DNA of 60,633 bases, filler included, from Platydemus manokwari (Eukaryota), in assembly GCA_037951405.1 (NCBI GenBank). It is 6 parts of 6 records of this genome, joined end to end, with 100 filler letters (N's around TTAATTAATTAA, not from the genome) between each part and the next. Parts side by side here need not be neighbours in the genome. Positions count along the whole stretch, not along the records: positions 20,786 to 29,669 come from JBBMOY011334762.1; positions 29,770 to 39,293 come from JBBMOY011236875.1; 4 more parts are not named here. One strand, written 5' to 3'. The position numbers were made by a program, and so were the translations under genes. The notes under the pieces were generated by a model, which saw only the letters and a list, made by a program, of their open reading frames with translations, made no database searches and was not told the origin of the DNA. Positions 23,195 through 30,526 of the stretch are shown here, piece by piece (positions within the stretch are counted from its first letter, which is position 1; each line of letters opens with the position of its first letter).

Positions 23195-24769
23195 TGTTGT
23201 GTTGGAGTTTTGGTTCTTTTATTATTTAGATATGTGAGTTATGTATACTACCGGTTGAAGCGCAATGTCAATCCGGTAGGTGCGTGCTCCTATATTATTA
23301 TTCAATAACAAATACTAATAATTCAAAGATAAGCCGATTATAAAATGTATTTGCCCTTATAACAATGTACAAATGTTTAAACGTAATTGATACAATAAAA
23401 TTCTCTTTTAAAAATTCAGTCAGATTACTTTCTCAGACAAACAAAATTTCAATTTACCAATACACCGTTTAGGAAAATATTTTCAACAAGGGAAGGCTCC
23501 GATAACGAACTTCCTTTGTGTTGATATAGAATTTAATTATATATGCATATATATTTTATAATATGGGCGGGTCCCTCAACTACTTATATTTTTCCTCTAA
23601 ATATATTCAAGTATCACACCTTTATATTTTTTTGCGTCGTTTATTTTATGTCGTATCGATTTTTCACTGCGTGTCTCAGAGTACTTTTAATCGTAAAATT
23701 CCTTTAACTCTTTGAAATTCGTCTGGTAATTTTGAGAGCTAAGTTTTTGCGAGTGAAAATAGTGGCTTTGCCAATATAGTGTTTTCTAGGACCGATTCTG
23801 AATAATCGTTTTAAATTATTATTTTCTTTTTTCTTATTGGATATTGGAATTATTTTTCAAATTCGCCTAGATTAATAATTTTGATTTTATTATTCACTCG
23901 TATTATTCATAATATTTTTCTTTTTTCTCCTACATTGCAATTATCGCCCACAACGCCCACATTTTAATTAATTTATTTTTATCCATGTTTATAATTTATA
24001 TTATTATTATTCCGCATAATAATTTTTTAATATTATTATTATTATAATAATTACTATTAATATAACATATAATTTGATTTTTATAATTTTTTATTCTTTT
24101 ATATACAATTTTTTTCTTTTTTCTCAAAAATACTACAAATTCATAAATCAAAATAAAGTCATAAAATACATTTTTTCATGCAAGATCAGAATAGTGATAG
24201 TCATATTGCTCGTCCATGTCTACCTTCCATTGTAGACTCTGGTAGGAGGGGGTTGATTGAGGTGATTTGATCTTCTGATATAGGGAAGATATGGAGGATG
24301 AGCGAGTTGTTGATCGATTTGATGCATTGTTTTGTTGTATTGTTGTTGTTGATCCCACGTTCATTCTGCAACACATATAATTAATATTCCTTGATTTTCT
24401 CTTCTTGTGTCTGGGATTTGCACTACTATTTCCCTAACTGATTCAGTGATGATTTCACTTGCTATGTTGATTCTTCTTTTCCACTTCTGATTTGATTCCT
24501 GAGTTTCCTTATATGTTCTTAATTCTTCCTCTAGATCATTAATTTGCTGCTGTGATTTCTCTGCTTGCTACATTATCTGATTTAATTGTTTATTTCCCTC
24601 TTTTAACTCGTTGTTGTTAGTTTCTTTACTTATTGTTATTTGATATGATTCCTCTTTTATTTCTTCTTCATGGTTTTCGATAACCATTATCATTTTCTCT
24701 GTTGGTTTAGGGTTTTGACCTTTTTTCTCTCTGTATTCACCTAGTGCCTTTTCTTCCGCTTTCTTACAC

Positions 24770-25420
24770 CGATTTACGTGAACTACTATTGAATCTGCGT
24801 TCTTATTTTTGATTACATATAAGTTAGTGGCTGTCACTTTTACAACCTCATATGGTCCCTTAAATGGTCTCTGTAGTTTAGTTGTTAATCCCTTTTAGGC
24901 TTCTGGTGCTCTAAATTCGCACTTTATCTCCTGTTTTGAAATTGTGTTTCTTTGCTTTTTGATCATAATATTTCTTATATTGATCTTGTCGGAATTTGCT
25001 ATTTAATTGAACTTTTTGATAAACCTTGCTTAATCGTTCTTTCATCATTGTGACAAATCCCAATCCTGGCTCATCCATTAGTTGTGATGTTGCTGGAAAG
25101 AAAGTTAAGTCTATTGGTAAAAATGTTTCTCTTAAATACATTCAGTAGAACGGTGAATATTGAGTTTTTTCATTAACTGACGTGCTATACGCGAATAAAC
25201 ATGATTTGATATATTCATCCCAATCGTTTTGTTGATAATTCACGATATTTGATAGTATATTCTGCAATGCTTGGTTAAATCTTTCAACTAATCTATCAGT
25301 TTGTGGATGATATGGTGAAGTTTTTAGTTTCTTGATTTTAAATAATTCTGTTGTTTCTTGGATAACTTTGTTTAAAAAATTCTTTTCTCTATCTGTTAGC
25401 AATTTACTGGTACTCTCCAT
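24770..25420 (-). pseudogene. Integrase core/C-terminus and GPY/F module of element 2
   Basis: TDREKNF...KTSPYHPQTDRLVERFNQAL...DWDEYIKSCLFAY...QYSPFY; YYDQKAKKHNFKTGDKV; KLQRPFKGPYEV...VVHVNRCK. Confidence 0.9.
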
Positions 25421-25801
25421 CGTGATAAACAAGTAATAATTGTTACTTCTGGAGATAACTGCTGGTATAACTGTTAATAAGTTTGTTCTGTATTGATATT
25501 TTATCACTCCATTTGCAGTTATTTGATACCCTGCAGGTTTCATCTCATTATAGGTTTATATCTCTTCTTCATTTACTGAATATCCATTGGTCATGTTCTC
25601 TGCTTGATTCTTTAACATATTCCTTCTTATTCTCTTTAATTGACTATCTTTCATCTACATTTCTTTTGTATCTTGTTCAGTTGTTGGTTTATGAATGTTG
25701 CCGATGTTGGACTTATTTTTAATAATGATTTTTCTCCACCGTCCGGTATTCTCGATAGTGAATTTGCGTTTGCATTAGATTTCCTTGTTCTCTAAATTAT
25801 T

Positions 25802-27060: not shown

Positions 27061-27062
27061 TA

Positions 27063-28703
27063 TTAGCTGTAAGAATACCTTATTTTTATATATTGCTGGC
27101 ATTTCATTGGTACAATATTCGTGTTTTCTTATGAGCAAATTGTTTACCGTTTGGTATTGAAATGTGTATATGACTTCTGATACAACTCTTGCTAAGGTTC
27201 CTTTATCATAGAATATTAATGGAGCTATTAATTCCGGATTTCTTACCTCTAATGCCATTTTTGTTTGCAAAACTTACTTTCTCAGCTTACAATCGTTTAG
27301 CATCATTTCCGTATATATTCTTTCCATATCTCCTTGATTGAGATGATTAAAATAATTTTGTTGTAGAAATATTGAGATAATTTCATGTCTAGTTTATCCC
27401 ATGTTAATTTTGCATCCTTTATTTCATATTTGCTTAGATTTCTTTATTTGTTGTGCACATTTCTTAAATATTCCCTTACGCACAAATCTCTTTACATTGC
27501 TTGTCTTGTCTGCTATATAAACCAGTGGAGTTTCTTTCATTCTTATTTCCAATGTCTCTGTTGGATTATCTAAGATGATTCTTGAGAATTTAGTTTCCTT
27601 AAATTTTTTCTCTTTTATTTCTCGAAATTCTGCTTTCTTTAACAATCTTTATAGACACTTTTATGGATTGCTTTTATGCATTATTAATGATTATCCTGTA
27701 TTACGCGTTGCGTTTTTATATTGACAATGCGTCCATGTTGTCATTTTCTTAGATATAGCGTCGAATGTAGCTTGATATTCTCGTAATTCTGTTATACAAT
27801 GCCTATTTGCAACAACGTTGTTACTACTTTTCCATCTATCATGTAATCTTGTCCTTCACAATATCCCCCATTGCTAGACCATCCTGCTTGATTTACGGTG
27901 TATCTATTAATTCGACTTGGTGCAACAGTAACTAGTATTCCCTTTTGGATTTGATAAGTTCCTCTTTCAAATGTGGCTTTACAGCTTTCCACTGTTGGTA
28001 TTTCTGGTACTGGTAGTCATGCTGGAACTATTGTATGAACAATGAAATAGCATTTCCAGATATGCATTTTTGCATTCTCTTGCTTGTTTAAAGAGAAATT
28101 CGGATTCTTGATATACGTACATTTCCTTGGGTCTGGATTGTGTTATATTCACTGGATATGCCTCTGGGCATTATTCTATATCTAACAATGAGTATTTCTT
28201 TTCCCAACGTGGTTTACTGCAATTGTATGCAGTTATTCCTGCGTTGGTTCATCCTATTAAACTTATTACATACATGGCAAATAGTGTTTGCACTATTGTG
28301 GCTAATGTTGATCCTGTATTATGGCTTTGTTTTATTTTAACTGGCTTTCTAATATATTTTAATGTGGTGAATACTGCATTCCATCCTTCTTGCTCATTCA
28401 TTGCTTGTTCAAATTCTTTATATATTAATTCTGGTGCATCTTCTAAATTTATTATTCCTTAATCAATGTGATTGCTTAATGTTCTGAGCGTTACTGCAAC
28501 TTTTCCTGTAATTTATCTTCTTTATTTACTTCATGTACTATTCTCCTTACCTCTTCTTTATTGTCACACTATTGCATCTTCTTCATTGAATGTCTAATTG
28601 AATCTGTAAGAATATATATCTTATCAGCTTGTTCTCTTTCGTTTCATTTGAGTGTGCAAAGTAATTCATTTATCACTCTCAAATATTGTCGGATTTTGTC
28701 CAT
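27063..28703 (-). pseudogene. Bcl-2-like domain + signal helix + chuvirus-like glycoprotein of element 2
   Basis: MDKIRQYLRVINELL..YILTDSIRHSMKKM..HEVNKEDK/TGKVAVTL..AMNEQEGWNAVF..TLFAMYVISLIG*TNA GITAYNCSK..YSLLDIE*CP..MYVYQESEF..REC..ESCKATFERG..GYCEG, collinear with the element 1 ORF. Confidence 0.8.
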
Positions 28704-30526
28704 GTTATAGTTATGTATCTTTTCATTTTTAGATTCTTGTCGTTTGCTTGATATTGAATTGAATGTTTCTTATGTGCTCAAGTTACTAGTGCTTGGCATA
28801 TTATTCATAGCATTTTTCTGAAATATAGTTGGCTCATTAGCGATTCTTTGTGATCCTGTTAAACTTGGTTGTGGTATATTTTTTCGTACTGGAATATTTT
28901 TCAAAATGTTTGTTCATCCTAATGATCTTCCTCTTGGCTTTTTTGTTGATACATTTTTGTCTCTTCATCTCTACATTTGTTTGTTGTACAACATGCGTTT
29001 ATTGACTTTCACTTTGATTCAGTGATTATAGTGCTCATAGAGTTCTTATCATTATTATATCTTTCTTGACTCTCATCTCTTTGCCTATCTTGAATTTCCT
29101 CTACATTTACAATTTCTTCTTATTGTCGTGTTTGATTGCAATCTTCCTTATTATTCACCATGTTGTATCTTTCTTAAAATTAAGCACAGATTTCGAGTAT
29201 AAATATCGATGTAAAGATGGCCAACTGTAAGTTGGAAGCCAATTTTTGATTCCGTATTTTGAGGACATTATATTGAATTTTAGCGTCGTAATGAGTAGGA
29301 CGAGTTTGATTATATCTGTGTTTTTTTGTGAGTCATACTGATTAGTACGTGAATTAGAAATAAATATTACCACCTTGACTTTTGGAGTATTTAGCTATTC
29401 AGAATCAAGACCCAACAATTATTTGGTGAGGCCGAAATTGAACGAAATTAATTTTATGCATTTGGATAACCGGAATCTAGATAATCTGGTTTGGATTTGA
29501 AATCACCATAGGAATGCGATTTTGTAGTATTTCTCTATTTAATTGGCTACTATTTAATATAATTTCTGGTATATGTTTGCTTACTCGCATTTTAGCGATA
29601 TTTTTAAGTTTATTGCCATGAAGTAATAATTTTATTTTATTGTAAACCTATAATTCGGAAAATATATTANNNNNNNNNNNNNNNNNNNNNNNNNNNNNNN
29701 NNNNNNNNNNNNNTTAATTAATTAANNNNNNNNNNNNNNNNNNNNNNNNNNNNNNNNNNNNNNNNNNNNATAGATAATTTAATATCGTGACCATTCATTT
29801 TATTTTTAATGAATGATCTTAACTTACAAGCTAAGATATATTATAATTAAAAATAATTATCTATTTATTACAGTAAGTAGATTTCTTTATTAAATTTTTA
29901 TTTTATGTTAAATAAATTAAACAATTTAAAAATATAAAACTGGTATTATTTATTGTGACTACACATCACATATTTTTTTACATTTACTTTTGTTAGTGTG
30001 ACATCAGTCGGTTTTTGTATTTCTCTAATTTCGAATCAGAAAATTAGAAACTATAAATTAGTGATACCTGCATTATAGTCAAATATAATCAAATTATTAA
30101 TACCTGCTTTAAATGTGATAAGTCTGGTATCGTGTAAATCTCATCGATTTTTAATGTATTACATTAGAATAGTAGATAAAGGAATACAAATATTTAAGCA
30201 TATTATCAATATTATCCGAATAATAAGAGTGTTAAAATATCAAATAATGAGCAATGAATTCCTTGAAGTTAAATTTAATTAAACAATATCAAACTAAAAT
30301 GATCACTATAAATGACTGTTAGAGTATGCAGAAAAACAAAAGAAATTTTAAGAAAAATATAACAAAATATATTTTGAACAAAAGGATCAATGTCAATACA
30401 CTGTATTATCACTGAACATCTATAATGTGAATTATTTAACTTTATCATTCATTTTCATTCCGCACACAATGTTTCTAATTGGCCACTTTGTTGTATATAA
30501 TGTTGAGTATTAACTGGCATTATTCA

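Follow-up and report, generated by a model that had tools for sequence, protein, structure and literature searches.

The window analysed in this study is a stretch of 60,633 nucleotides of Platydemus manokwari DNA (GenBank assembly GCA_037951405.1), which is AT-rich and consists of six contigs joined by N44-TTAATTAATTAA-N44 spacers. Two decayed retroelement copies were found in it. Element 1 is located on the plus strand at about 14075-20205, on the contig 11142-20685, and element 2 on the minus strand of the contig 20786-29669. With a probability of roughly 0.82, element 2 is what remains, dead and with internal deletions, of a Ty3/gypsy retrotransposon of the GAG-ENV-POL type, likely of the Burro kind, in whose intact relatives a Bcl-2-like domain would be anchored in the membrane by the signal peptide of the envelope glycoprotein (env) and likely dampens cell-death or immune signalling of the host. 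The two copies lie on different contigs joined by a spacer, and both reach contig ends; a genomic cluster of the two was rejected because of the separate contigs, and their closeness within the window is meaningless.

Order and decay of the parts of element 2

Read along the minus strand, element 2 consists of a Bcl-2-like remnant, a hydrophobic signal stretch, env, and pieces of aspartic protease (PR), reverse transcriptase (RT), RNase H (RH) and integrase (IN). A first-pass annotation of the window had described the order Bcl-2-like, glycoprotein, pol in this element. Every peptide that it quoted was found in the minus-strand translation and the order is real, the upstream Bcl-2-like part being recognizable only with a family profile.

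The Bcl-2-like remnant (28366..28696, minus strand), located by family-profile alignment, is about 8 residues shorter than its relatives and contains 3 stops and at least one frameshift near 28500. A hydrophobic stretch (28249..28305, minus strand; Kyte-Doolittle mean 1.8 over 19 residues) lies directly before env and ends at a stop. It is predicted to be an internal signal peptide or membrane anchor, and a hydrophobic stretch is found in the same position in element 1 and in P0001, L003, P0003 and P0006 (P ids denote relative proteins and L ids relative DNA loci). The env remnant is of the gB type (chuvirus/Monjiviricetes-like; 27076..28245, minus strand). It matches residues 905-1308 of P0001 with 7 stops and 2 frameshifts and is without the C-terminal third and the membrane anchor. 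PF24664, the Monjiviricetes fusion glycoprotein family, matched it with E=1.1e-16 when stops were read as X, and the env blocks of elements 1 and 2, which had been aligned in the first-pass annotation, matched in tblastn with E=1e-17 over 28320-27079.

The protease is represented by a C-terminal piece of 34 residues (26956..27057, minus strand; P0001 residues 1735-1768), the catalytic part being missing, and this piece shares one open reading frame (ORF 26950-27273) with the end of env. The RT and RNase H remnant (25622..26779, minus strand) contains 4 stops and 4 frameshifts, with YIDD at about 26600-26589; RVT_1 matched around YIDD with E=8e-10 and RT_RNaseH with E=1e-23. The IN core and C-terminal (GPY/F) remnant (24514..25514, minus strand) has lost the zinc-finger part and contains 4 stops and 3 frameshifts (Integrase_p58_C, E=1e-5; rve_3, E=0.007). 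The pol domains proposed earlier to follow the glycoprotein are thus all present and in order, but PR survives only as its C-terminal third. Upstream of the Bcl-2-like remnant, the translation of 28700..29180 (minus strand) gave an A-rich, acidic stretch that matched neither the env nor the ubiquitin-like profile, and which is likely the decayed linker preceding the Bcl-2-like domain in relatives.

Against P0001, env and pol of element 2 show 15 stops and 9 frameshifts; with the Bcl-2-like part, which adds 3 stops and at least one frameshift, the total is about 18 stops and 10 frameshifts. Four large deletions have removed the C-terminus of env with the catalytic half of the protease, the PR-RT spacer, part of the start of RT, and the IN zinc finger; the two middle ones were read partly by eye from the translation. 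Element 2 is a dead pseudogene, internally deleted, and as read from the sequence neither element can move by itself. Decay as an assembly artefact was rejected, because contigs of run X1 match the broken parts of element 2 with 0 differing letters; X1 may be the window's own source. Profile and alignment searches of element 2 found no Gag, ubiquitin-like domain, tail protein or ORF2, and Gag was not found in element 1 either. Neither a pair of long terminal repeats (LTRs) nor a primer binding site (PBS) match was found in elements 1 or 2, both of which end at contig ends. The earlier statement that the two copies differ in base composition and have no obvious DNA identity held, the best blastn match being 55 nt at 71% (E=0.25) and the GC content of env 45% versus 33%.

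Intact relatives and phylogeny

A search for longer proteins gave one match among 4,089 candidates, P0001, a single protein of 3,181 aa with zf-CCHC (Gag), PF24664, protease, RT, RNase H and integrase in that order. The full HMMER search gave 991 matches, 150 of them listed; 24 were scanned and included several Gag-env-pol or env-pol polyproteins. A degenerate DNA pattern led to 7 metagenome loci, 6 of which were true relatives, while L006 and three pattern matches in genome_contigs were chance. No env relatives were present among the 17 matches in viral_contigs, where L001 was a chance match; this set gave one gypsy outgroup, L012.

In the intact relatives P0001/L004 and L003, ubiquitin-like domain, Bcl-2-like domain, env, PR, RT, RH and IN are encoded in one frame. 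L004, a metagenome locus on an 11.9-kb contig, contains the whole P0001-type ORF followed by a second ORF. Just before its gag is a PBS-like 18-mer starting with TGG, presumably matching tRNA-Trp, and no LTR pair was found in this locus. L003 has an open frame of 3,426 aa with the Gag end missing, which runs from the ubiquitin-like domain through env to pol in the same order. PF24664 was found upstream of PR/RT also in P0001, P0003, P0006, P0013, P0015, P0019 and L003, and gag upstream of env in P0001, P0004, P0014, P0018, P0019 and L002. In element 1 and many relatives, the Bcl-2-like domain comes after a module made up of a helical (four-helix) and a ubiquitin-like domain; this module occurs twice in P0001 and L002. 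The ubiquitin-like module of L002 was modelled with a confidence (pLDDT) of 88.5, with ubiquitin, SUMO and ISG15 at Z about 11. Downstream of IN, the relatives have a tail consisting of a signal and an anchor, as judged from hydrophobicity, and element 1, L003 and L004 share a further ORF related to ISG20/SDN1, in which catalytic motif I, the first acidic motif, is kept in one of the three, L003.

Several side observations were made on these relatives. The first 77 residues of L002:3541-4035 (minus strand) form a confidently modelled four-helix domain paired with a ubiquitin-like domain. Two to four aspartic-protease-like domains lie between env and RT in L003:2-10279, P0002, P0003, P0004, P0005, P0012 and P0014, and L003 has extra hydrophobic segments in the same interval. 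In P0015, residues 130-300 appear by eye to be an exonuclease-like stretch before env in place of Bcl-2, which suggests that accessory domains can be exchanged at this place in front of env. The element protein P0006 looks intact and has its NCBI entry under a Flavobacteriaceae metagenome-assembled genome, where it is labelled hypothetical; animal DNA was likely binned into a bacterial genome here.

Trees were built from 29 env rows, 10 RT-RH rows and 8 IN rows picked from 152 proteins and 12 loci, with P0020, L002, L005 and L007 left out. In the RT-RH tree, element 2 grouped with the env-bearing relatives P0001, L003, P0003, P0006 and P0013 with support 96/93, which answers the RT phylogeny proposed earlier as a check. 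In the env tree it was placed among the same relatives, and stand-alone chuvirus-like glycoproteins of about 650 aa formed a separate branch (100/99). The IN tree agreed, without strong support.

These trees bear on whether the order could have arisen by chance nesting, with an endogenous glycoprotein gene of chuvirus-like type inserted next to a gypsy pol to which it has no relation. The env-protease junction of element 2 is indeed abrupt, skipping about 426 residues of P0001, and X1 contigs overlap it by fewer than 31 letters on one side. But chance nesting is very improbable, and already largely refuted, because intact relatives encode the same order in one frame and both env and RT of element 2 group with the same relatives; the separate branch of the stand-alone glycoproteins and the open frame shared by env and the protease piece speak against it too. 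The first-pass view of an old, diversified lineage is therefore upheld. Its wording that element 2 "independently shows" the order is not, since the two copies are homologues in one family and not independent origins.

Element 2 might also be a mosaic of at least two members of this family. Directly 5' of it are a high-copy repeat and another, divergent env remnant, it has suffered four large deletions, and X1 contigs of at least 85% identity pile up on env and pol (240-800) and hardly on the Bcl-2-like part (6-16), a depth that is not a copy number. Such a mosaic is unlikely, as the BH2-like motif, the signal stretch and the AYNC motif stand in one frame at the spacing of the family, and no supported conflict was found between the trees.

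The Bcl-2-like domain

In the family, a Bcl-2-like domain was found directly before the env signal in element 1, P0001, P0002, P0007, P0010, P0018, P0020, L002 and L003. Leave-one-out profile scores were 51.6-95.9 in these 9 members versus 12.8-21.5 in 11 relatives without the domain; by inspection, L005 and L007 contain a broken one. A profile of 7 members matched Bcl-xL with E=4.6e-6, the BH1 and BH2 (Bcl-2 homology) regions being aligned, and PF00452 matched P0007 below its cut-off (E=0.00096). On these sequence comparisons the domain is homologous to the Bcl-2 family, and the fold search on the model agrees weakly, all matches listed by Foldseek being Bcl-2 family members at E>0.1. The ESM Atlas gave no usable match for the Bcl-2-like part or the four-helix domain. 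The BH2-like GG-W/L motif is kept in 8 of 9 intact members. BH1 is degenerate and does not correspond to the canonical NWGR: the Trp is found in none of the 9 members and the Gly in 2, and a basic residue (Arg or Lys) stands at the Arg position in 7.

In all three pairs compared, nonsynonymous divergence (pN) of the Bcl-2-like stretch was lower than synonymous divergence (pS), at 0.13 versus 0.81, 0.33 versus 0.69 and 0.46 versus 0.72, with dS near saturation. The earlier claim of an architecture under selection therefore applies to the lineage, in which pN is well below pS, but not to element 2 itself, which is a pseudogene. On the env tree, relatives with the domain did not cluster: 121 of 500 shuffles gave a value as low, and at least 2 changes were needed on starred branches. 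This patchy distribution is most simply, though not conclusively, explained by repeated loss. Word-indexed searches with the Bcl-2-like part returned nothing among 298 and 2,267 candidates, so that no donor of the domain emerged.

For element 2, a 9-member position-specific scoring matrix aligned locally gave a score of 27.5 at the BH2-like end; none of two sets of 300 shuffles and 3 of 578 sequence windows (one site) scored as high. The 9-member profile aligned end to end over 28696-28366 gave a score of 15.2, with 0 of 364 sequence windows and 0 of 200 shuffles in each of two sets as high, and this alignment reproduced the three blocks of the first-pass annotation. When single relatives were aligned end to end with element 2, 8 of 9 scored above the null mean, clearly so only P0010 (0 of 200) and P0007 (4 of 200). 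By sequence, the stretch upstream of the glycoprotein is very probably a true Bcl-2-like remnant.

The stretch might instead be no more than an amphipathic linker, not derived from Bcl-2, which happens to suit a helical profile. Pairwise comparison with element 1 was negative, as detailed below, the N-terminal half alone was not significant with the 9-member profile, and no Pfam Bcl-2 match was obtained in element 2. A linker is nevertheless improbable: the end-to-end profile score exceeds all 764 null scores, the stretch is at the expected position, and P0010 alone matches it at the level given above.

A number of results weigh against our interpretation. The alignment of elements 1 and 2 upstream of the AYxC motif, put forward earlier as a block-by-block match, was not significant pairwise: residues 31-178 of element 1 against 28330-28900 gave a local score of 27, reached by 102 of 150 shuffles, and end-to-end alignment of the two Bcl-2-like parts was equalled by 60 of 200. 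The frameshift-aware comparison of the two elements that had been proposed as a check fails in this region without relatives. A 7-member hidden Markov model (HMM), local and frameshift-aware, was marginal (24-28 of 574 sequence windows as high, p about 0.05), and a per-frame hmmsearch did not find the Bcl-2-like part of element 2. Several tests were tried, and significance was obtained only after two members had been added and the scoring changed. The model of the domain was poor (pLDDT 48), and the VIA-align Z of about 7 was tied with unrelated helical bundles. Of 18 labelled relatives, 10 have no such domain, and those that have it do not cluster on the env tree, so that the domain is dispensable. 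Element 2 is without a demonstrable Gag, ubiquitin-like domain, LTR pair, PBS or target-site duplication, and a foreign env remnant occupies the place where its 5' parts should be. The outgroups of the trees were few (L012, P0064), and the elements are here called Burro-like by comparison with the published layout of Burro.

Element 1 and the surrounding sequence

Element 1 begins with helical and ubiquitin-like domains (14108..14586, plus strand) containing one frameshift, matched by P0001 in tblastn with E=1e-6; the profile score of the ubiquitin-like region was 78 versus a null maximum of about 27. These are followed by the Bcl-2-like domain (14966..15335, plus strand), an open frame with PF00452 at E=0.022, below the cut-off, and by a signal stretch, gB-type env and membrane anchor (15401..17284, plus strand; PF24664, E=1.8e-58) with an in-frame stop at 17051-17053. 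This env is 35% identical to that of P0001 over 798 columns. The C-terminal half of IN (17364..18035, plus strand) comes directly after, the match to P0001 jumping from residue 1520 to 2612, so that a deletion has taken away PR, RT, RNase H and the beginning of IN. A small membrane-anchored ORF after IN (18212..18733, plus strand) corresponds to the signal-plus-anchor tail of relatives in position only, with no significant sequence match to these tails. The last part is an ORF related to ISG20/SDN1-type DEDD exonucleases (18866..20205, plus strand), in which the first catalytic motif is not conserved. It matched ORF2 of L003 with E=2e-14 and of L004 with E=5e-11, and the profile of this ORF matched SDN1 with E=9e-5.

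The limits 23195..29669 given earlier hold element 2 and also take in high-copy repeats and the foreign env remnant. On the 3' side is a high-copy repeat (23200..24350, no strand assigned), where the summed contig depth was 2,200-35,000 versus 6-800 inside element 2. This repeat may include the 3' LTR of element 2, and it gave no match to the tails of relatives. On the 5' side is a short high-copy repeat at about 29100-29380, with many joints and loose ends in X1 at 29185-29340, followed at the contig end by the second divergent env remnant of the same family (29440..29641, minus strand). The latter scored 82 against P0006 env, the best of 60 shuffles being 55, and is only 21% identical to the matching env stretch of element 2 itself; it is likely part of another, different copy.

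A decayed gag with a zinc knuckle at 46669-47421 (plus strand), on another contig, is related to P0001 Gag (E=1.6e-9) and by this match is a third remnant of the same lineage. Decayed fragments at 22500-23220 and 21100-21600 (both minus strand) lie in a region that is very high-copy in X1. We take them to resemble the protein-primed DNA polymerase (YMDTDS) and adenain-like protease of Polinton/Maverick elements, going by sequence motifs only; no Pfam or phage match was obtained for them. Host genes in the window are an Asparaginase_2-family gene in two long ORFs (40823-42084, plus strand) and an ORF with WD40 repeats (5298-5786, plus strand). Two inverted repeat pairs of about 106 nt (20961-21066 / 21704-21809 and 11594-11700 / 47997-48103) are possibly the ends of small DNA transposons.

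Comparison with known elements

The architecture described here has already been published, in 2018-2019, for the planarian Burro elements, according to the account in PMC6431247. Burro/GYPSM1 are described there as giant gypsy-like LTR retrotransposons of about 4,900-5,100 aa and more than 30 kb, with a single ORF encoding Gag, a Ubi2/SUMO-like domain, BCL2, in-frame env, PR, a dUTPase-like domain, RT, RH and IN. The same account gives mononegaviral matches for Burro env, CCHC knuckles in Burro Gag, BIR and BCL2-like motifs, and decayed Burro fragments in Dugesia japonica (PMC6431247). Element 1 and its relatives share with Burro the BCL2-like domain directly before an in-frame env, which in element 2 is recognized by the family profile only. 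They also share the ubiquitin/SUMO-like domain before BCL2; no such domain was detected in element 2, where other sequence has taken the place of the 5' part. As for the dUTPase-like domain between PR and RT, the corresponding spacer is conserved in four relatives, with only E=1.5 to a dUTPase and no Pfam match, and is deleted in elements 1 and 2.

The elements differ from Burro in that the intact relative P0001/L004 has 3,181 aa on an 11.9-kb contig, with no MATH, BIR, ankyrin or AAA Pfam match in P0001; that the part of PMC6431247 available contains no mention of a tail membrane protein or an ISG20-like ORF2; and that the copies in the window are dead. Because the intact relative lacks the size and the MATH, BIR and ankyrin features, the elements are likely Burro-like and Burro proper is not claimed. 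With element 2, a new but dead member is likely added to a known lineage.

Errantiviruses of the GAG-ENV-POL type with an HSV (herpes simplex virus)/gB-type env are described from Platyhelminthes, Nematoda and Bryozoa, including Smed_errantivirus_1-6 (PMC13524379, as far as available). They carry gB-type env between gag and pol, and env is likewise upstream of pol in element 2 and its relatives. By eye, env of element 1 resembles that of Smed_errantivirus_4 and env of element 2 that of Smed_errantivirus_3 (PMC13524379, from the supplement as available). In contrast, accessory domains are not described in the main text of PMC13524379, from which 'Bcl', 'apopto', 'ubiquitin' and 'exonuclease' are absent. 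With Ty3/gypsy elements (Metaviridae), the remnants of element 2 share the pol order PR-RT-RH-IN with gypsy-type domains, complete in P0001. The viral Bcl-2 proteins A179L of African swine fever virus (ASFV), KsBcl-2 of Kaposi's sarcoma-associated herpesvirus (KSHV), BHRF1 of Epstein-Barr virus (EBV) and CNP058 of canarypox virus are similar in the modelled helical fold and the predicted membrane anchor that follows it; here, unlike in those proteins, the domain lies within a retroelement polyprotein and BH1 is degenerate. A DEDDy exonuclease is reported as ORF3 of bdelloid rotifer LTR retrotransposons (PMC5408684, in the part available). These also have an exonuclease-family ORF downstream of pol, but the ORF found here matches ISG20/SDN1 (RNase_T family) and not the RNase D type.

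In the literature searched, as far as the sources were available, PMC6431247 was the only instance of BCL2 linked to such elements, and PMC13238120, PMC10175614 and PMC11410931 contained nothing further on the domains. Compact relatives of about 12 kb, the patchy Bcl-2-like domain, its degenerate BH1, the second membrane protein after IN and the downstream ISG20-like ORF were not found in this literature; the original 2018 account of Burro may already cover the tail protein, ORF2 and compact forms.

Proposed role and significance

From hydrophobicity and the general topology of polyproteins, Gag, the ubiquitin-like and the Bcl-2-like domains would remain cytosolic, and an internal signal would be provided by the hydrophobic stretch in front of env. 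This signal belongs to env, because relatives without the Bcl-2-like domain also have it. Cleavage by signal peptidase directly upstream of the AYDC motif would leave the Bcl-2-like domain tail-anchored on the cytosolic face, as cellular Bcl-2 proteins are. Env would enter the lumen of the endoplasmic reticulum, and PR-RT-RH-IN would be brought back to the cytosol by the env anchor. The Bcl-2-like domain would then most likely keep the producing cell alive or quiet its defences. By our analysis, inhibition of apoptosis by BH3 binding is the favoured role, if only slightly; poxvirus-style, non-apoptotic interference with immunity would be less likely, and a structural spacer the least likely.

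It is a serious possibility that in active relatives the fold binds no BH3 proteins and acts in the manner of the poxviral A46/B14/K7 class or serves as a spacer at the membrane. The BH1 Trp is missing from all 9 members and the Gly from 7, and many relatives do without the domain. Against this, the members have retained the BH2-like motif and a basic residue in BH1, Bcl-xL, Bak and viral Bcl-2s (A179L and KsBcl-2 among them) match best, and BIR motifs are reported in Burro elements (PMC6431247, in the account available).

Taken alone, the finding contributes two dead copies of a lineage whose order of domains was already published in 2018-2019. Its usefulness comes from the relatives, which offer compact, intact single-ORF versions and show a Bcl-2-like domain patchily distributed on the env tree. 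Their small isolated Bcl-2-like, ubiquitin-like and ISG20-like domains make the published idea that Burro meddles with apoptosis and ubiquitination testable without a 30-kb element. We tentatively suggest that the ubiquitin-like and Bcl-2-like cassette, rather than being peculiar to giant Burro, may be an old accessory module that was lost repeatedly within a broad clade of enveloped retrotransposons of compact size (about 12 kb), in which the env signal doubles as the tail anchor of Bcl-2 and the second membrane protein after IN and the ISG20-like ORF complete a counter-defence kit. If so, the elements would count as retro-transcribing viruses of invertebrates that carry the kind of modulators of host death and immunity otherwise known from large DNA viruses.

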